Assembly: GCA_040183005.1 (NCBI GenBank)
Contig: JAMPIW010000009.1
Location: 50,876-114,875, forward strand
DNA: 64,000 nucleotides
Direction of reading: 5' to 3'
From: Gammaproteobacteria bacterium
Lineage (GTDB): Bacteria > Pseudomonadota > Gammaproteobacteria > Ga0077554 > Ga007554
The notes below the pieces were generated by a model. The model had not been told where the DNA came from and searched no databases. It was given only the letters and a program-made list of their open reading frames with translations. Both the position numbers and the translations under genes were made by a program. Positions 14,815 through 23,528 of the stretch are shown here, piece by piece. The stretch's first letter is position 1, and each line of letters begins with the position of its first letter.

Positions 14815-15405
14815 ATGGCTGACAAAAACATATCAACCCAGGAAAAATGGGACACTATCTATAGCAGCGCCGAAAAACAGCCGAAAATTGCGTCGGAGGT
14901 GTTGCGCGAAAACCAGCACCTGTTGCCCGCCTCCGGCAAGGCACTGGACTTTGCCTGCGGTTTGGGCGCAAACGCCCTGCTCCTCGCCGCACAGGGGCTG
15001 GAGACCCATGCCTGGGATATCTCTGAGGTCGCCGTTACGCGCCTGTCGGAAGAAGCCACAGCGCGGGGTTTACACATCCATGCCGAAGCCCGTGACTTGG
15101 TGGCGCAGCCACCGGAGCCCGAGAGCTTCGATGTGATTGTATCCTGCCATTTTCTTGAACGCCCGTTGAACCCGCATCTACTCGCGGCGCTGCGGCCTGG
15201 CGGGCTGCTGTTTTACCAGACCTTCACGCTTGAGAGGGTAGACGGCGCAGGCCCGCAAAACCCCGAATTCCGTCTGCATGAAAATGAGTTGCTGACGATA
15301 TTTCCCGGCCTGCGGGTATTGGTCTACCGTGAAGAAGGGTTGGTGGGTGACACGCAACGCGGCTTCCGCAGCAGGGCGATGCTGGTGGCGCAGAAGCGTT
15401 CATGA
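14815..15405 (+). CDS. Class I SAM-dependent methyltransferase (TehB-like)
   Basis: 196 aa with SAM-binding motif LDFACGLGANALLLA. Confidence 0.7.
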   Translation: MADKNISTQEKWDTIYSSAEKQPKIASEVLRENQHLLPASGKALDFACGLGANALLLAAQGLETHAWDISEVAVTRLSEEATARGLHIHAEARDLVAQPPEPESFDVIVSCHFLERPLNPHLLAALRPGGLLFYQTFTLERVDGAGPQNPEFRLHENELLTIFPGLRVLVYREEGLVGDTQRGFRSRAMLVAQKRS

Positions 15406-15451
15406 AGCAGCGGTCAACGGCGATTTTAGGTTAAACCTAAAAAATTCAGCT

Positions 15452-15583
15452 GTCCACGAAAGTCACGAAAAAACACGAAAATATTCAAATACATATCGCG
15501 ATTTTACTTGCCACCCATCTGGTGAATTACTGAAGCAATCCATGCTTTTGTTTTATTTCGTGAATTTTGTGTTTTTCGTGGAC
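15452..15583. repeat. CACGAAA-iteron inverted-repeat element, copy A (degenerate)
   Basis: Each arm carries three 9-bp CACGAAARN units (left arm GTCCACGAAAGTCACGAAAAAACACGAAAATA; right arm is the imperfect reverse complement). A perfect 10-bp GTCCACGAAA/TTTCGTGGAC stem closes the two ends, with about 70 bp between them. Confidence 0.5.
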
Positions 15584-15600
15584 AAAAAGCGGTTTTAAGG

Positions 15601-16275
15601 TTAAATGCTCTTTAAATCCAGACACCTTGCAATTACTTGGGCATCAAACTCCCGTAGATGAGGGATCACGCCCAGCAGCGGCGCGCTGATGCGTTCGCGC
15701 AGGGCGTCGATATTTTCTTGCAGTTCCGGGAATTCAGGGCATGCACTGTTCGCCACCCAGCCCGCCAGCGGTACGCCCTGCCGGACAATGCTCTCGCAGC
15801 TCAATAAGGCGTGGTTCAGGCAACCCAGGCGCATTCCTACGACCAGGATCACCGGCAGGCCGAGCGCTTGGGCGAGATCGGCGATTGTTTCGCGCTCATT
15901 GAGTGGCACCCGCCAGCCGCCCGCGCCTTCAACCACTACATAATCAATGCGTTGTGCCATATCATCAAAGATTGCCTTGATGGGCGCAATGTCGATGCGC
16001 TGTCCCAGCCGCTTGGCAGCAATATGCGGTGCGATGGGCGCGGCATAGGCATAAGGGTTGATCTGTGCATAGGGCAGGTGAAGGGTGGCGTGACGTTGCA
16101 GGACCAGCGCGTCGCCGTTGCGCAAACCCTCGGCTGTCTCAAGACATCCGGCAGAAACGGGCTTCATCGCGGCCGTAGTGTAACCTTGCGCCGCCAGCGC
16201 CGCCAGCACGCCCGCTGTCACCCAGGTTTTACCCACGTCGGTGTCGGTGCCGGTGATGAAGAAGCCGCGTGTCAT
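15601..16275 (-). CDS. bioD: Dethiobiotin synthetase
   Basis: 224 aa containing GTDTDVGKT (P-loop). Confidence 0.9.
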   Translation of the reverse strand: MTRGFFITGTDTDVGKTWVTAGVLAALAAQGYTTAAMKPVSAGCLETAEGLRNGDALVLQRHATLHLPYAQINPYAYAAPIAPHIAAKRLGQRIDIAPIKAIFDDMAQRIDYVVVEGAGGWRVPLNERETIADLAQALGLPVILVVGMRLGCLNHALLSCESIVRQGVPLAGWVANSACPEFPELQENIDALRERISAPLLGVIPHLREFDAQVIARCLDLKSI

Positions 16276-17192
16276 TAAGGATTGCGCCGTGGCGGGAAGG
16301 CGACTTTGAATACCCCTGGCTCCTCGGATTGCTGCGGCGTGGCGGCGTGTTCCGGTGCCCAGGCATGGCCGTAAACCACTTCATACGTGGCAGGCAGCAG
16401 GCCGTCGCGCCGGTAATATTCGTAAGCGGCGGCGAGCGAGCGTAGGTGCGTCTTGCCCGTCAGGCCGCGTGAGCGCCCGGCAGTGACGTTGTGCGCGCCG
16501 ATGGTTTTGAGATCGCGCATCAGACGCTGAATATCCGGATAGGTCAGCGTGAAGTTTTCCACGTCCATCACTGGCGTAGTGAGCCGCGCGCGCATCATGG
16601 CATCACCGATGTCATGCATGTCGATAAAGGTGTTGACGTGATTGAAGCCATCCACGGCTTTCCAGCTGTGGCGCAATTCCTTGAGCGTGTCTGGCCCAAA
16701 AGTGGTGAACATCAACAGGCCGCCCGGTTTCAGCACGCGGCGGAACTCGCGCAAGGTGTTGTCCAGGTCATTGCACCACTGGATGGTGAGGTTGGAGAAG
16801 ATCAGATCGGCACAGCCATCCCCAAACGGCAGGCGCTCGGCGTCGCCACACACCAGCGCCGGTGTTTTCTGCCAGGGTAGCCAGGATGAATTATGGCGGC
16901 GTGTTTGCAACAGCATGTTGAACGCCAGATCCATGGCGATGATGCGGGATTTTTTATAGCGGCGCGCCAGTGCGGCAACGCCATGGCCGGTGCCTGCACC
17001 GATATCGATGATGCACTCAGGGGCAAGCTTTACCAGATCGAGCCGTTCCAGCATGCGATTTCTCACTTCGGCCTGCAGCGCTGCTGCTTCGTCATAATGG
17101 GAGGCGGCGCGGTCAAATGAGGCGCGCACCAGGCTTTTATCGAGCAGGAAGTCGCTTGTATTATTATCTGATTTGTTCATATAAAAATTCAT
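16275..17192 (-). CDS. bioC: Malonyl-ACP O-methyltransferase
   Basis: 305 aa SAM methyltransferase placed between bioH and bioD. Confidence 0.85.
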   Translation of the reverse strand: MNFYMNKSDNNTSDFLLDKSLVRASFDRAASHYDEAAALQAEVRNRMLERLDLVKLAPECIIDIGAGTGHGVAALARRYKKSRIIAMDLAFNMLLQTRRHNSSWLPWQKTPALVCGDAERLPFGDGCADLIFSNLTIQWCNDLDNTLREFRRVLKPGGLLMFTTFGPDTLKELRHSWKAVDGFNHVNTFIDMHDIGDAMMRARLTTPVMDVENFTLTYPDIQRLMRDLKTIGAHNVTAGRSRGLTGKTHLRSLAAAYEYYRRDGLLPATYEVVYGHAWAPEHAATPQQSEEPGVFKVAFPPRRNP

Positions 17193-17940
17193 CCACTACT
17201 GCAAAAAAATCATCGGGGTGTGACAAAAACGGCGCGTGAGCCGCCCCCTTGATAACATGCCAATGCACGTTGGGCCAGATTTCCTTGATATCCAATGCTT
17301 CCGCAAGCGGCACAAGGGCATCGCGCTGACCGAATACCAACTGCACCGGACAGCCAATCTCGCGCAAGCGGGGACGCAGATTCGCATCACGCAAAATTGC
17401 AAGGCCGCTGCGCAATGTTGCCGGCGGGGGCGGGCTGTGGCGTGATGCCAACTCACGCAAGGAACGCAGCGTTTCGCTGCCGCGCCCGCTGCCCAGCGTT
17501 TGCAGCGCCAGAAACCGCTGCAAGGTATCGTGATAATCCTGCTCCAGCATTTGGGTAAAGGCTTCCAGCACCTGCAATTCCATGGCATGCGGCCAATCGC
17601 CGCTGCGCACGAATTGCGGACTGCTGGCGACCAGAATCAGACCCTCTACCCGCTCGGGATGTTCGATGGCGAGCCGCATGGAAACCATCCCTCCAAGCGA
17701 CCACCCCAGCCACACGGAACGCGACGGTGCTACCGCCGCAACCGCTGCCGTCAGCGCATCCAGATCAAAATCACCGTCGATGGCCGCGCTGCGCCCATGC
17801 CCCGGCAGATCAATGAGCGTAACGCGGAAGGCCGATGCCAGACGTTGGGCGGTTTCTTTCCAGATGTCCGCATGCAGGCCCCAGCCGTGCAGCAACACGA
17901 TGTCCGGCCCCGCACCTAGGGTCTTTACATACAAACTCAC
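17164..17940 (-). CDS. bioH: Pimeloyl-ACP methyl ester esterase (alpha/beta hydrolase)
   Basis: 258 aa with HGWG and GWSLGG motifs. Operon context. Confidence 0.8.
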
Positions 17941-19085
17941 AATAACTCCGCCAGCGCGTCCAGCAGCCGATCCACCTGTGCTTCGCTGTGAGCCGCAGAG
18001 AGCGTGATGCGCAGCCGTGCGCTGCCTTGCGGGACTGTGGGAGGGCGAATGGCGCTGATGAGGATGCCACGCGCCATGAGCGCATCGCTTAACGCCACCG
18101 CGCGCCCTGCATCGCCGATTATTAGCGGCTGGATCGGTGTCGCTGATGCAGGCAGCGCCAGCCCCAACCGCTCCGCCCCGTCACGAAACCGCGCGATCAA
18201 GGTGTGCAAATGCGTGCGTCGCCAGTCTTCCTCTTGCACCAGCCGGAGACTGACTCGCGTCGCCTGCGCAATGGCGGGTGGCAGCGCGGTGGTGTAGATG
18301 TAAGTGCGGGCACGCTGAATCAGGGTTTCGATGAGTTCTTCGCTGCCTGCCACAAACGCACCGAAGGTACCGAAGGCCTTGCCAAGCGTACCCATCAGAA
18401 TTGGCACTTCATCCACGCCCAATCCGAAGTGCTCCACTACCCCTCCACCGTGCGCACCCAGCACGCCCAAACCATGGGCGTCGTCGATCATCAACGCTGC
18501 ATTGTGTCCGTGGGCGATGGTGGCAAGTGCGGGCAGTGGCGCGATGTCGCCGTCCATACTGAACACACCATCGCTTACTATGAGTCTTGTTTTGGAGCAG
18601 TCTCCCGCCACACACCGCTCCAGCGCCTCCATATCATTGTGAGGATAACGCCGCAGGCGCGCCTGCGACAGCAATCCGGCGTCGATCAGCGAGGCATGGT
18701 TGAGACGATCTTCAAACACGGCATCACCCCGGCCCACCAGTGCGCTAACCACGCCGAGGTTGGCCATATACCCCGTGGAAAACAGCAGGGCGCGCGGCCT
18801 GTGGGTGAACGCCGCCAGTTCTTCTTCAAGTGCATGATGAGCGGCACTGTGCCCACTCACCAGATGCGCCGCGCCGCTACCCACACCGTACTCGGCGGCA
18901 CCCTGTTGCAATGCGCCGATGACGTCGGGATGATTGGCAAGCCCCAAGTAATCATTGCTGCAAAAGGACAGATAGCGCCGCCCCTCAACCACCACCTCCG
19001 CACCCTGTGGACTCTCCAGCACCCGGCGTGTGCGATAGAGATTAAGCGCCCGTTGTTGCTCCAGCCCAGTGGCCAGGGATTTCAT
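17937..19085 (-). CDS. bioF: 8-amino-7-oxononanoate synthase
   Basis: 382 aa PLP-dependent enzyme in the bio operon. Confidence 0.9.
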
Positions 19086-19137
19086 GATTTAGCCACAGAG
19101 CACACAGAGGTCACGGAGAAAACGTTCTTGAGATTGA

Positions 19138-19947
19138 TTAACAAACTCTGTGTCCTCTGTGGCTAATGTCTAAGGTAATTTCTGCTTCCATAAACGTGAC
19201 AGCATACCCTGAGAGAAGCACGCGGTCAGCTTTCACCTCGCAGGCGATGTTACCGCCACGCCTGGAAACCTGCTTGGCGCTCAGGGTGTTCTTACCAAGT
19301 TTATTGGCCCAATACGGCGCAAGTTCACAATGAGCGGAGCCTGTGACGGGGTCTTCGGGGACACCGTATTTGGGCGCAAAGAAACGGCTGACAAAATCGA
19401 CATCCATGCCGGGCGCGGTGACAATCACGCCACGTAAATCAAGCTGGCTCAGCAAGGTATGGTTTGGCGCTATTGCACGAACCGTCGCTTCGCTGTCGAA
19501 CACGGCCAGGTAATCGTCGGCTGACAACACCTCGACGGGCCGCTGGCCGAGACCTTCAATTAATGCCTCTGGTATAGCGCATGGTCTTGGCGGGAGGGAG
19601 GGGAAGTTCATCTCCAACAGATCCCCCTTTCGCCTTACGACAAGATCGCCGCTACGTGTCTCAAAGGGGATGGACTGCTTGGAATAGCCAAGAATTTCAA
19701 AAATGACATGGGCCGTTGCCAGAGTTGCGTGGCCGCAAAGATCAATTTCCTTGACTGGCGTAAACCAGCGCAGGTTGAACCCCTTTGCAGAAGGCACAAA
19801 GAAGGCCGTCTCGGATAAATTGTTTTCCCCCGCAATGGCTTGAAGAAGACCGTCGTCCAACCAGCTTTCCAAAGGGCATACGGCAGCCGGATTTCCCTCG
19901 AATACACGGGATGCAAAGGCGTCTACTTGGTATTGTTTGATTTTCAT
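19138..19947 (-). CDS. PhzF-family isomerase-like protein
   Basis: 269 aa with PhzF/YddE-like motifs (FEGNPAAV...LSETAFF). Confidence 0.75.
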   Translation of the reverse strand: MKIKQYQVDAFASRVFEGNPAAVCPLESWLDDGLLQAIAGENNLSETAFFVPSAKGFNLRWFTPVKEIDLCGHATLATAHVIFEILGYSKQSIPFETRSGDLVVRRKGDLLEMNFPSLPPRPCAIPEALIEGLGQRPVEVLSADDYLAVFDSEATVRAIAPNHTLLSQLDLRGVIVTAPGMDVDFVSRFFAPKYGVPEDPVTGSAHCELAPYWANKLGKNTLSAKQVSRRGGNIACEVKADRVLLSGYAVTFMEAEITLDISHRGHRVC

Positions 19948-19973
19948 ATCCAGTGGCTTGTGGGGTGGAATCT

Positions 19974-20501
19974 CTACGGTAGAGACCGCTTTTCCAAAAC
20001 CTCGACTTTGAGTCCGGCATGTTTTGGGATGCCGACTCCCGCCGACAGCGGATAGTCCATTACGGTATCTGTTTTTTGATACCCGCGCCTCAGATAAAAA
20101 GAAATGAGTTCACTTCTTGAGGACACAACAACCATGATGAACTTCTCGGAGCTGAAATTTGCGCTCGCATATCTTTCCGCATGAGCAAGCATTTGCTTTC
20201 CCGCGCCAACCCCTTGCAGTGCTGGGCTAACCGCGAGCATACCAATGTGGCTATTGCTGCCGTCTTTCTCGACATGAACACAAGCCACAATTTCTGATCC
20301 CTTAAGGCCGACAAGAATAATGGAATCTGGCTTTGATACCATTGCCTCGATTTGACCAACACTCGTTCTGCCACCTGACACCAAATGGGATTCATGAGTC
20401 CAGCCAGACACGCCTGATTCCGGGCGATATGCTTTGTTGACGAGCTGTGCTATTGCATCGGCATCTGACTTACTGGCTGTGCGGAATGTATCAATGCTCA
20501 T
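19974..20501 (-). CDS. GNAT family N-acetyltransferase
   Basis: 175 aa with an acetyl-CoA-binding-like segment (LAVSPALQGVGAGKQML). Confidence 0.7.
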   Translation of the reverse strand: MSIDTFRTASKSDADAIAQLVNKAYRPESGVSGWTHESHLVSGGRTSVGQIEAMVSKPDSIILVGLKGSEIVACVHVEKDGSNSHIGMLAVSPALQGVGAGKQMLAHAERYASANFSSEKFIMVVVSSRSELISFYLRRGYQKTDTVMDYPLSAGVGIPKHAGLKVEVLEKRSLP

Positions 20502-20526
20502 ATGTTGATTTGCGGTCTAGCTATTA

Positions 20527-20844
20527 TTAGACGTTGGCATCCGTAAAACGACTGGCTATGGACTCCAGCAGACGCTTCCCATGAACAACAGCCACCACCA
20601 ATATCCGCTTTTCTTCGATACAATACACAAGCCGATAACTGTACACGAACCGCTCCCTGATGTTTTCGTTACCAAGCTCAGGCACTACCCGGCCGATATG
20701 TGGGAAATCTGCAAGGGTTCTGGATACCGATAATATTTTTGACACCACCGCTCGCGCGTAAAATACAGAATCTCGACTGATAAACCCCGCAATTGCTTCG
20801 ACATCCTCAGTTGCTTCAGGTGACCACTCTATTCTGTGGTCCAT
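20527..20844 (-). CDS. RelE/ParE-family type II toxin
   Basis: 105 aa with RelE/ParE-like sequence. Overlaps the upstream small antitoxin gene by 16 nt. Confidence 0.75.
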   Translation of the reverse strand: MDHRIEWSPEATEDVEAIAGFISRDSVFYARAVVSKILSVSRTLADFPHIGRVVPELGNENIRERFVYSYRLVYCIEEKRILVVAVVHGKRLLESIASRFTDANV

Positions 20845-21017
20845 TTGCTCAGCCGCTTTTCAACTTCTTCTTGTGTTATGACGCCTTCGGACTCCGCCCT
20901 GGATATGCCCCGCTGAATTTTTTCCAAGACGTAAAGATGATACTGAACGTCTTCAACCGTGCAATCCTCGGGCAGGTTTTCAAGTAGCCCCCGTACCTTC
21001 TCCTTCGCTGCGTTCAT
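20829..21017 (-). CDS. Putative antitoxin partner of the RelE/ParE toxin
   Basis: 62 aa acidic protein immediately upstream of and overlapping the toxin gene. Confidence 0.6.
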   Translation of the reverse strand: MNAAKEKVRGLLENLPEDCTVEDVQYHLYVLEKIQRGISRAESEGVITQEEVEKRLSKWTTE

Positions 21018-21196
21018 TTTGACCTCCGATAGTTATGCTTCATTGAGTCACCAATAAATTCATCAGGCACTGGAGGGCCAAGAGCAAAAACGGGCACAGA
21101 CGCCACTAAAAGAGCGGCCATGGTAACCGTATGAGTGGAGATATACACCAATCAAGCCCCCCTGACGACCTGTCCGGCTTGTTACAAATTGATTGA

Positions 21197-21559
21197 TTAG
21201 GCTGCCTGCAGCATAAACTCAACCTTCACTGCCTTATATGGAAATTCAATACCACCATCAGCGGTTCGGGTGAGGATGCCTGCCTTCAGCAGTGCGGTCA
21301 CGTCGCCTTGAACTGCCTTTACATCGCGGCTGACTCGCCTTGCCGCCTCTCGGATTGATACCGGGCCTGCACCGCATAGGGCTTTGAGTAGTTCCCAACG
21401 CTTGGCCGTGAGCACCTGCCAGAGTAGTTCAGGAATGGCAAAGGCGATATGTGCCGTGCGATCTGTGCGGCCTGTCTTCATGGCCCGCGAAGCGTCAGTG
21501 AGCGTTTCTGCCAGAGAGCGCACTTCAAGAACGACCGTTTTCATGATTCCACCTCGCAA
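21197..21559 (-). CDS. HTH-domain putative transcriptional regulator/antitoxin-like protein, orphan
   Basis: 120 aa with predicted HTH (VSIREAARRVSRDVKAVQGDV). No partner ORF adjacent. Confidence 0.45.
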   Translation of the reverse strand: MRGGIMKTVVLEVRSLAETLTDASRAMKTGRTDRTAHIAFAIPELLWQVLTAKRWELLKALCGAGPVSIREAARRVSRDVKAVQGDVTALLKAGILTRTADGGIEFPYKAVKVEFMLQAA

Positions 21560-21606
21560 TGTCGGCGTTGAAGTTGGCCATCAATTGATCTGGGCCGGAG
21601 ATTGCT

Positions 21607-22635
21607 CTAACTATTATTATTAACAGCCGCACGCCGCTGCTGTGTATCACCACGCGGCCTTAGGTTGAGGGCTTCCAGCATTTTCAGGTCGTCTTCTACC
21701 TGGCGTCCCTTGGTGGTGAGGTAATCGCCGATCATCACGCCCGATGCGCCGGCCATGAAGATCATGGCCTGCATGTCGCCGAGGAACTGGCGTCCGCCTG
21801 CGATGCGGATCTCCGCTTTCGGCAACAGGTAACGGAACACCGCTATCGCCTTGAGAATATCCATGGGCTGCATGGGTTCGCGCTCACCCATGGGAGTGCC
21901 GGCTTGAGGGTTAAGAAAATTCAGGGGCACGGATTCCACTCCCAACTCACGCAGTGTCAACGCAAGTTCAACACGCTGATCGAGGTTTTCACCCATTCCT
22001 AAAATGCCGCCAGCACAGACGCGCAGGCCAGCCTTGCGTGCATGGTTGATGGTGTCGATGTTTTCCTGGTAGGTGTGGGTGGTGCAGACCTGGTCGAAAA
22101 AGCTCGGTGCGCACTCCAGGTTATGGTGGTAATTTTCCATGCCCATCCCCTTGAGCATGACCGCGGTTTCTTCGTCCAGCGCGCCAAGGCTGGCGCACCG
22201 GCCTATATCCGAGTGTTCTTTTAGCGTTGTGAAATATTCTTGCAACTGGTTGCGTTCCTTGGCGGAGCGCACGCCCCAGCCTTTGGACACCACGCCAAAA
22301 TCGCTGGCGCCCCAGGCACGCGCACGCTCGGCTTGCTCCACCAGTTTTTCGCTGGAAATGTAATTGTAGGCCGGAGCTGCCGTCTTGTGATGGGCGCTCT
22401 GGGCGCAGAACGAACAGTTTTCGGAACAATTGCCGGAGCGCACGTTGGAGATGGCGCACACCTCAACCTCGTTGCCGCGGAATGTCTTGCGGATGCGGTC
22501 GGCACCCGCCATAAGCCAGGGCAGGTAATCGTCTTCCAGGCGGATCATCCAGCGTCCTTCGTCGCCCGTTATATCCCCGCCCGCAAGAATGCGGGTGGTC
22601 AGGCTGTCGATGCGCTGATAGATTTCGTTGTTCAT
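21607..22635 (-). CDS. bioB: Biotin synthase (radical SAM)
   Basis: 342 aa with a Cys-rich radical-SAM region (CSENCSFC) and BioB-like sequence. Confidence 0.95.
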   Translation of the reverse strand: MNNEIYQRIDSLTTRILAGGDITGDEGRWMIRLEDDYLPWLMAGADRIRKTFRGNEVEVCAISNVRSGNCSENCSFCAQSAHHKTAAPAYNYISSEKLVEQAERARAWGASDFGVVSKGWGVRSAKERNQLQEYFTTLKEHSDIGRCASLGALDEETAVMLKGMGMENYHHNLECAPSFFDQVCTTHTYQENIDTINHARKAGLRVCAGGILGMGENLDQRVELALTLRELGVESVPLNFLNPQAGTPMGEREPMQPMDILKAIAVFRYLLPKAEIRIAGGRQFLGDMQAMIFMAGASGVMIGDYLTTKGRQVEDDLKMLEALNLRPRGDTQQRRAAVNNNS

Positions 22636-22733
22636 GGCGACTCTTTTCCTGTTTGGGTATGATGTGAAAGGATTTCTGTGAATATAGATATTAAAGGCAA
22701 CGCGATTCCTGTCAACCTAATGGCGCCCCAAAA

Positions 22734-23459
22734 GTGAACGACTGGTTAAATATTGCGCAATCCCTGCTATTTCCGCCGATCTGCGTCGTCTGCGGCGCCA
22801 AGGGCAGCCATGGCTTGGATCTCTGCTTGGGCTGCCGGGCGGAGCTGCCCTATCAAAAGCAGGCGTGCCAGCGCTGCGCCTTGCCATTGCACGGCATACA
22901 CAATGATGATGGGTGCAGCGTGGCATTATGCGGAAACTGCCTGAATGATTCCCCCGCCTATGACCGTGTTTTGAGCGTGTTCACGTACGCCAGCCCGGTG
23001 GATTACCTTATCCAGGATCTTAAATTCAATCGAAAACTCCACATCGCTCGCCTGCTGGGGGAGATCATGGCCGATCATCTGGAACAGAACGTGCAAATCC
23101 GGCCCGACCTGATTATCCCGGTGCCCCTGCATCGCGCGCGCTTGCACGAACGTGGCTATAACCAGGCCCTGGAGCTGGCGCGCCCAATCGCACGCAAACT
23201 CAACCTCCCGATTGACTACCTCGGTTGCGAGCGATCGCGTGCCACACCTGCACAATCAGATTTGCCAGCCAAAGAACGCCCATGCAATGTGAAGGGGGTG
23301 TTCAATATAACGGGCAGCTTCAAAGGACGCCATGTCGCCATTATTGACGATGTAATGACCACCGGTAGCACCGTCGAGGAACTTGCCACGGCGTTACGCG
23401 AGGCCGAGGCAAGTGCTATCGATGTGTGGGTATGCGCTCGCGCATCGTTAAACGATTGA
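22734..23459 (+). CDS. ComF/GntX-family phosphoribosyltransferase-domain protein
   Basis: 241 aa with N-terminal Cys-rich zinc ribbon (CVVCG...CLGC...CQRC) and C-terminal PRTase motif (VAIIDDVMTTGST). Confidence 0.75.
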   Translation: MNDWLNIAQSLLFPPICVVCGAKGSHGLDLCLGCRAELPYQKQACQRCALPLHGIHNDDGCSVALCGNCLNDSPAYDRVLSVFTYASPVDYLIQDLKFNRKLHIARLLGEIMADHLEQNVQIRPDLIIPVPLHRARLHERGYNQALELARPIARKLNLPIDYLGCERSRATPAQSDLPAKERPCNVKGVFNITGSFKGRHVAIIDDVMTTGSTVEELATALREAEASAIDVWVCARASLND

Positions 23460-23528
23460 CGCGACAAGATTGGGCGTACGATTGGGTTGTGTTATTCTTG
23501 GAAATTGTTATTAATGATGGAGAAATTT

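Follow-up and report, generated by a model that had tools for sequence, protein, structure and literature searches.

Biotin biosynthesis genes lie on the minus strand of a 64-kb stretch of gammaproteobacterial DNA (positions 50,876 to 114,875 of contig JAMPIW010000009.1, assembly GCA_040183005.1; the window, meaning all 64,000 nucleotides, to which coordinates refer unless another locus is named), and the subject here is a block of five genes that stands between bioB and bioF. The list of open reading frames (ORFs) gives the minus-strand order as bioB, a helix-turn-helix (HTH) gene, an ORF of 62 amino acids (aa), a parE gene, a GNAT gene, a PhzF-like gene, bioF, bioH, bioC and bioD, with the following positions and assignments.

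21607-22635, minus strand: bioB, the upstream boundary gene, encoding a Type II-like biotin synthase (TIGR00433, 377 bits)
21197-21544 (ORF to 21559), minus strand: HTH gene, encoding a TumA-like winged HTH protein of the HVO_A0114 family (PF25212, E 1.7e-25)
20829-21017, minus strand: putative antitoxin ORF of 62 aa, overlapping the start of parE by 16 nt
20527-20844, minus strand: ParE/RelE-family toxin gene (PF05016, E 1.7e-16, 61 bits against a cut-off of 23, profile positions 1-88 of 89)
19974-20501, minus strand: GNAT acetyltransferase gene (PF13673/PF00583), a putative cassette ORF
19138-19947, minus strand: PhzF-like (YddE-type) isomerase gene (PF02567, E 2e-59, 202 bits; TIGR00654, 121 bits against a cut-off of 76), a putative cassette ORF
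17937-19085, minus strand: bioF, the downstream boundary gene (TIGR00858, 501 bits), followed by bioH, bioC and bioD down to 15601

A first-pass annotation made from the letters and the ORF list had described a bio gene order interrupted by a PhzF-like isomerase, a GNAT acetyltransferase, a RelE/ParE toxin-antitoxin pair and an HTH protein, all co-oriented and closely spaced, and in these respects it was accurate. The ORFs are all in place on the minus strand, the spacers measure 25-62 bp except for the 179 bp from the HTH gene to the antitoxin ORF, and Pfam and NCBIfam matches confirm the gene identities, the assignments being solid for four of the five inserted genes; the exception is the 62-aa ORF, which has no Pfam or NCBIfam match even at E 5. 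The GC content is 0.48-0.50 over roughly 19600-21200, which covers GNAT and the ParDE pair, as against 0.58-0.64 in bioF, bioH and bioC, a composition foreign to the operon.

That the block is an insertion and not an ancestral arrangement, as the annotation had also supposed, is upheld by comparison with other bio loci. One genome per species was scanned with BioF, yielding 80 gammaproteobacterial loci that are 58-72% identical; bioB ends no more than 250 bp upstream of bioF in about 70 of these, and homologues of any of the five inserted genes are found in none. Similarly, bioB adjoins bioF in three loci that share the window's BioB type at 73-79% identity (L003, L017 and L060; such L-numbers label comparison loci and contigs). 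A second set of 80 metagenomic loci, with PhzF homologues of 71-84% identity, includes none in which the homologue adjoins bio genes. Neither set shows a conserved ancestral arrangement with a biotin-related function.

Close relatives of the window reveal how the interval between bioB and bioF varies. Contigs were found by protein searches followed by context look-ups, and their flanking genes are 88-96% identical to those of the window at the nucleotide level. The gene orders are as follows.

L086: bioB - tumE - HTH - GNAT - PhzF - bioF, with tumE-HTH intact
L094: bioB - 192-aa ORF - attC - HAD hydrolase - GNAT - PhzF
L097/L098: bioB - TPR protein - PhzF - bioFHCD
L096: antitoxin - ParE - GNAT - PhzF - bioFHCD, the same as in the window

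These relatives, which come from four other runs or assemblies, carry PhzF, usually with GNAT, between bioB and bioF. Everything between bioB and PhzF is exchangeable, and the single cassette of the first-pass annotation gives way to separate modules, each with a history of its own: PhzF is constant, GNAT is present in most relatives, and the segment upstream of GNAT is swapped. Relative to L086, the window lacks 296 bp (L086 364-659) comprising the tumE promoter region and 72 codons, and its 644 bp at 21166-20523, bearing the ParE pair, stand where L086 has 94 bp. The L096 contig shows two small changes of its own, an 8-bp tandem duplication (TGAGCATT) in GNAT at about 500-530 that shifts the frame right after the ATG, and a 6-bp in-frame insertion in the antitoxin ORF at about 110-120, with ParE intact; the two may reflect cassette decay or sequencing error.

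The constancy of PhzF raises the question of whether PhzF, and perhaps GNAT, has been recruited into the function of the biotin operon, for example by modifying a pathway intermediate, which would explain why PhzF is kept beside bioF. PhzF does lie directly upstream of bioF in all six related contigs while the content upstream of it varies, and it is intact and 90-93% identical among them. However, conservation among such close relatives may reflect recent common ancestry, and the absence of bio genes beside any of the 80 PhzF homologues, together with the absence of PhzF or GNAT homologues from all 80 bioF loci, confines the linkage to one narrow clade. The nearest solved relatives of the protein are uncharacterised PhzF-like proteins (1s7j and 4dun, about 240 bits), with true PhzF (1u1v) scoring only 59 bits, and the GNAT gene of L096 is frameshifted at its very start. 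Neither close similarity to true PhzF nor a phz operon context applies, the neighbours being bio genes and cassettes, and an exact look-up of the PhzF-like protein found it not to be on record. Nothing links PhzF or GNAT to biotin synthesis, and recruitment is considered very improbable.

The same contigs speak to the integrity of the assembly. The source is a metagenome-assembled genome (MAG) and the GC content of the insert differs from that of its flanks, as a chimera of assembly or binning would have it, but a Logan contig (run SRR19360587) is base-identical over the antitoxin, ParE, GNAT and the start of PhzF, and inserted genes are joined to bioB or bioF in another five contigs of different runs, whose flanks are collinear over up to 9 kb. 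A chimeric origin is thus scarcely credible. When 72,556 plasmids were searched with the DNA of the insert, the only matches were weak ones to PhzF, at 66-72% identity, and no source element came to light.

A clue to where the modules came from is that homologues of GNAT, PhzF and ParDE each occur in genuine integrons elsewhere, with the same ends as in the window. A GNAT homologue of 79% identity occupies the first cassette position next to an integron integrase (TIGR02249, 498 bits) in L088-L093, where the cassette opens with G|TTAGGC...ATG and closes with an attC that reads GTCTAAC...GAAC GTTAGGC, and in L087 a GNAT homologue sits inside an attC array behind the same leader as in the window, G|TTAGACCGCAACAACACATG. 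On the 3' side of the window's GNAT gene, homology to the L088 cassette continues up to the R'' box, GGTCT(A)AC, after which the 50-nt attC interior is absent and the sequence jumps to an R'-like box. GNAT was also considered as the toxin of a GNAT/ribbon-helix-helix toxin-antitoxin pair and rejected; it is a solitary single-gene cassette in integrons and has no equivalog match.

For PhzF, the core-site motif GTTRRRY lies about 32 nt before the ATG in at least 21 of 79 homologues, and the leader that follows aligns with the window's. Many integron-borne homologues end in ...EAEIAF*, and the R'' box of a GC-rich attC overlaps their stop codon; in the window lineage this natural stop codon is lost, a 10-codon read-through ensues, and an R'-like box follows directly. 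A covariance model for attC, described below, detects 34 sites, distributed over 15 of the 80 PhzF loci and each on the same strand as the gene; training sequences are among them. The third module has its counterpart in Nitrotoga.

20539-21047, minus strand: ParDE cassette-homologous block, 86% identical at the nucleotide level to Nitrotoga L082 1830-2338
21050-21166, minus strand: spacer at the left end of the ParDE-bearing replacement segment, outside the Nitrotoga match (21047-20539), in which no attC was found

The Nitrotoga match begins 2 nt past an attC at L082 1765-1828 (22.1 bits). In that Nitrotoga MAG, positions 1765-2420 hold the attC, the ParDE homologue, a GC-rich attC-like palindrome and then a Cupin_2 gene; the stretch has the look of a piece of a betaproteobacterial cassette array, one of whose cassettes is 86% identical at the nucleotide level to its counterpart in the gammaproteobacterium of the window.

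The attC covariance model (R1) was built from 14 attC sites of integron and metagenome loci only, without any bio-locus sequence, so a match inside a bio locus is a held-out one. Such a match is present in L094 at 662-729, between the 192-aa ORF and the HAD gene in the bioB-GNAT slot (29.1 bits, E 3e-5 to 2e-4), and the model also finds three attCs in L087 and the attC of Nitrotoga. Scored in this way, the window's own array has no attC, while L094, a 96%-identical relative, has one in the same slot.

The boundaries of the modules tell a similar story, as the breakpoints between shared and unshared DNA coincide with GTTAG-type motifs, and the exact core site GTTRRRY occurs in the window only 0.625 times per kb per strand. 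Four junctions can be distinguished.

21605-21611, minus strand: J1, GTTAGAG, degenerate motif that resembles a core site and overlaps the stop codon of bioB; all variable DNA has its left edge here
20515-20521, minus strand: J2, GCTAGAC, degenerate core site; 5' boundary of the proposed GNAT cassette
19971-19985, minus strand: J3, TCTCTAC C GTAGAGA, a 15-nt palindrome read as a collapsed attC; also the 5' boundary of the proposed PhzF cassette
19161-19167, minus strand: J4, ATTAGCC; right edge of the inserted DNA

At J1, homology with L086, L094 and L097/98 ends at AATAGTT|AG, and L094 has the exact GTTAGGC there. At J2, both L086 and L094 have an exact G|TTAGAC (G|TTAGACCGCAAATCAACATATG) followed by the same leader as in the window, CCGCAAATCAACATATG. 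J3 consists of R''-like and R'-like boxes side by side with the hairpin interior missing, and L097/98 have an exact G|TTAGAC at this point; J4 reads GTTAGCC in L086, L096 and L097. Exact GTTRRRY is thus present at J1 in L094, at J2 in L086 and L094, and at J3 in L097/98, and all four junctions of the window are one-off variants of the core site (GTTAGAG, GCTAGAC, GT-AGAG and ATTAGCC). A further non-coding stretch of 76 nt, common to L086 (1118-1193) and L094 (1375-1450) and absent from the window, lies just upstream of the GNAT core site and ends in AG[C/A]TAAC ATTCG[A/G] GTTAGAC, in which 6 nt separate an R''-like box from an R'-like one; this relic looks like another collapsed attC.

From these observations, the 2.5 kb between bioB and bioF are read, with a probability of roughly 0.65, as a small, largely fossilised integron-type cassette array with no integrase nearby. 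Several results weigh against this conclusion. The attC model has no match anywhere in the 64-kb window, and with filters off over 18900-21800 its best score is 4.6 bits (E 3.2), with the reservation that the 14 training sites are all of one GC-rich type, so that divergent attCs could escape it. A tblastn search of the window with an IntI protein gave nothing better than E 1.7 for an integron integrase, and none of the four window junctions carries an exact core site. Because the window has no attC, exact core site or integrase, the link to integrons rests on relatives and on boundary homology. The breakpoints were already mapped when the junction motifs came to notice, which makes the enrichment argument post hoc, and the presence of GTTAG is partly due to TAG stop codons. 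The ParDE segment is a replacement of the 94 bp of L086 and not a clean attC x attC insertion, with 117 nt and 18 nt of DNA without a traced source on either side of the matching block. Also not fitting is a 14-nt direct repeat, TAATAATAG[C/T]TAGA, at 20516-20529 and 21606-21619, which falls exactly on J2 (ParE stop and GNAT leader) and J1 (bioB stop) and so brackets the HTH-ParDE block in a suspicious position; considered as a target-site duplication, the repeat is alone only at chance level, and it may be a recombination signature or a coincidence. New modules appear upstream of PhzF and not downstream, which the simplest model of cassette insertion at a genomic attG site does not predict. 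Finally, no empty site was found within the same genus, and the ancestral spacer is a reconstruction, for which the sole support is the similar hairpin of L007, a more distant locus.

Much of this would suit an ordinary horizontal insertion, by illegitimate or homologous recombination and without any integron, in which the breakpoints do nothing but spare the flanking genes and GTTAG is a by-product of stop codons. The lack of attC and integrase in the window, the short spacers, which constrain the breakpoints that are tolerated, and the resemblance of the ParDE segment to a replacement with extra, untraced DNA are all in keeping with such an event. So are two unrelated lineages with other single genes between bioB and bioF, namely a gene for an outer-membrane-protein-like protein with a signal peptide in a Cellvibrio MAG (L014 5863-6474) and a methyltransferase gene in a Thioalkalivibrio MAG (L050 8043-8813); the bioB-bioF joint may be more generally tolerant of insertions. 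Left unexplained by ordinary insertion, however, are the exact agreement of GNAT, PhzF and ParDE with integron cassettes from the core site onward, the significant attC in the L094 slot, and exact GTTRRRY on three independent junctions, and an origin of this kind is accordingly judged rather unlikely.

If the array is of integron type, its point of entry may be sought in a hairpin that now separates PhzF from bioF.

19089-19166, minus strand: 78-nt hairpin with 21-nt arms, an inverted repeat that is 95% complementary and ends 3 nt before the bioF ATG

The hairpin has a minimum free energy of -35.8 kcal/mol (z = -5.7) and contains CACAGAG-type repeats, and the inserted DNA ends at G|TTAGCC, where the hairpin has its first base. 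A similar CACAGAG hairpin follows bioB directly in L007, a more distant locus without cassettes, at about 2200-2350 in the bioB-bioF spacer, and no such hairpin is present downstream of integron-borne PhzF genes; for these two reasons the hairpin is taken to be probably the native bioB-bioF spacer and the insertion target, with the G|TT at its foot as the putative entry point. If the sequence left of J1 is fused to that right of J4, the product reads AAT AGT TAG CCACAGAG...GGCTAAATC ATG, with the stop codon of bioB overlapping the hairpin foot, and the reconstructed empty site contains ...AATAGTTAGCCACAGAGG... The idea that the PhzF-bioF hairpin is itself an attC was rejected on account of its GTT/AAC boxes, which sit at the outer stem end, opposite to their place in an attC, its failure to match the model and the similar hairpin of L007. 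It is not a multicopy repeat resembling repetitive extragenic palindromes either, there being no further copies in the window. As only 3 nt lie between its 3' arm and the bioF ATG, the hairpin would cover any ribosome-binding site, and roles in mRNA processing or stability or in translational control are possibilities. A scan of 15000-23500 against Rfam gave nothing meaningful.

A precedent for such entry is found in the genomic attG sites, with consensus GWT, at which integron integrase inserts cassettes; cassettes inserted in this way are expressed if near promoters, and their attC hairpins are readily lost via replication slippage, a proposed route to domestication (Loot et al., 10.1101/2022.09.11.507474). 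A CRGM motif, which is reported on the right-hand side of attG hotspots, cannot be clearly recognised here at the expected offset, where CACA occupies positions 6-9 and CAGA positions 8-11. By analogy with attC x attG recombination, DNA would have entered the native bioB-bioF spacer at the G|TT that overlaps the bioB stop at the foot of the hairpin. Being constant in all relatives, PhzF was probably the first module to settle. GNAT and further modules would then have come in upstream of PhzF; that such modules are exchanged between close lineages is seen directly by comparison. In the window genome tumE appears to have been deleted, leaving the TumA-like HTH gene behind, and parE with its small antitoxin would have come in. 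The array would now be frozen, every attC hairpin lost and every junction core site mutated.

Expression of the inserted genes can be considered in the same light. A candidate promoter was noted upstream of the operon.

22688-22715, minus strand: sigma-70-like candidate promoter, TTGACA-16-TAATAT, 10 of 12 positions matching, a consensus match only; about 50 nt upstream of bioB

No BirA-type operator is recognisable by eye upstream of bioB, and promoter-like and terminator-like sites inside the insert show no excess over shuffled sequence. Because the cassettes are co-oriented, closely spaced and without a recognisable promoter, they probably ride on the bio transcript from the bioB promoter, and expression of bioFHCD would then need read-through across them. 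Such a need for read-through would explain why only co-oriented, terminator-free cassettes occur.

A further step, advanced only tentatively and itself more doubtful than not, is that the hairpin-footed spacer (AATAG|TTAGCCACAGAG...) is a natural attG hotspot and an operon-embedded cassette platform, loaded and unloaded repeatedly by an integrase elsewhere or in trans. Were this true, the bio promoter would serve as the cassette promoter, selection for bioFHCD expression would filter the cassettes and orientations that survive, and the locus would be a mini-integron without an integrase of its own, with the active stage in L094 and the fossil in the window.

Understood as a cassette array, the locus is another case of a kind already known, namely attG/CALIN-type cassette capture, here with toxin-antitoxin turnover. 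With attG insertions and with clusters of attC sites or single attC sites lacking integron integrases (CALIN and SALIN; 10.1101/2022.09.11.507474; Cury et al. 2016, PMC4889954) it shares co-oriented ORFs, junctions that appear to lie at G|TT, the lack of a nearby integrase, a position downstream of a host promoter and, in the relative L094, an attC still in the slot. It differs in that all attCs are gone in the window, so that attC-based tools would call neither CALIN nor SALIN, in that the array separates two genes of an essential biosynthetic operon, and in that its content is not the same in lineages of 88-96% identity. Another promoterless cassette captured outside an integron near a resident promoter is aadB, which occupies a secondary site in RSF1010/pRAY (cited in Loot et al., 10.1101/2022.09.11.507474); as cited there, it is a single plasmid resistance cassette with an intact attC, whereas several non-resistance cassettes in a chromosomal operon are involved here.

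Few natural, well-resolved examples of cassette domestication through attC loss are available, since its end state is invisible to attC-based tools. Under the cassette interpretation, the closely related haplotypes of the bio locus would form a series that begins with an array still bearing an attC and ends with one that has none left. The setting is an essential vitamin operon, in which the promoter and the downstream genes limit the DNA that can be inserted, and the locus would provide a concrete target sequence for attG recombination. It would also account for a toxin-antitoxin (TA) pair and a lone antitoxin in a cofactor operon.

The first-pass annotation had singled out that TA pair as unusual, an oddity that dissolves once the inserted genes are regarded as integron-type cassettes. 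Chromosomal integron arrays regularly contain TA cassettes, and in sedentary chromosomal integrons, such as the Vibrio superintegron, these cassettes are thought to stabilise the array. The ParE/RelE-type pair travelling as a cassette resembles these, with the differences that no integron platform is present, that attC is lost, and that a second TA module, tumE-tumA, has decayed to its antitoxin only. The small gene upstream of parE overlaps the toxin gene, and the two are conserved as a pair, as expected of a type II TA module: a 62-aa and about 104-aa pair recurs in Nitrotoga MAGs (L082/L083) and in L096, and the pair is intact in the window and in L096. The ParE toxin is 84-87% identical to proteins in unrelated taxa. 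From its family, the pair probably acts as an addiction or stabilisation module.

The HTH gene, in turn, had been called an orphan, a label that the remains of a partner gene directly upstream no longer allow.

21525-21605, minus strand: tumE remnant, the last 27 codons without a start codon, aligning to L086 660-740

The HTH gene overlaps this remnant by 20 nt, and its likelier start is the ATG at 21544, behind GAGGTGG. The corresponding tumE of L086 encodes an intact 98-aa TumE (PF20126, E 1.3e-15) and overlaps the gene for its small DNA-binding partner, and plasmid homologues of the HTH gene commonly adjoin or overlap a DUF6516/TumE gene. The DUF6516 family corresponds to TumE, a toxin that targets translation and has been validated by experiment (Durairaj et al. 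2023, PMC10584680). Because plasmid homologues pair with DUF6516 and L086 has an intact pair, the window's HTH protein is predicted to be a TumA-type antitoxin that has outlasted its toxin; it could be kept as a regulator or as protection against an incoming tumE. The arrangement resembles the TumE-TumA superfamily in the intact TumE with overlapping partner of L086, a partner that the window keeps. It differs in that tumE lies upstream of its partner, whereas DUF6516 is reported to be predominantly downstream (PMC10584680), in that the partner is an HVO_A0114-type winged HTH protein, and in that the toxin is deleted in the window. A PADLOC scan of the five inserted proteins gave generic winged-HTH similarity only and no link to a known defence system.

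The upstream boundary gene is of some interest in its own right. The window's bioB is Type II-like (anaerobe-type, 4Fe-5S) and not of the usual gammaproteobacterial type; the best solved relative of its product is 8VDW from Veillonella, at 321 bits, versus 188 bits for 1R30 from E. coli, and it has VSKGW where E. coli BioB, by eye, appears to have Cys97. It is only 32-39% identical to the BioB of most of the 80 bioBFHCD loci, its closer counterparts being those of L003 (Ca. Tenderia), L017 and L060, a distribution that suggests in-place replacement of bioB in some lineages.

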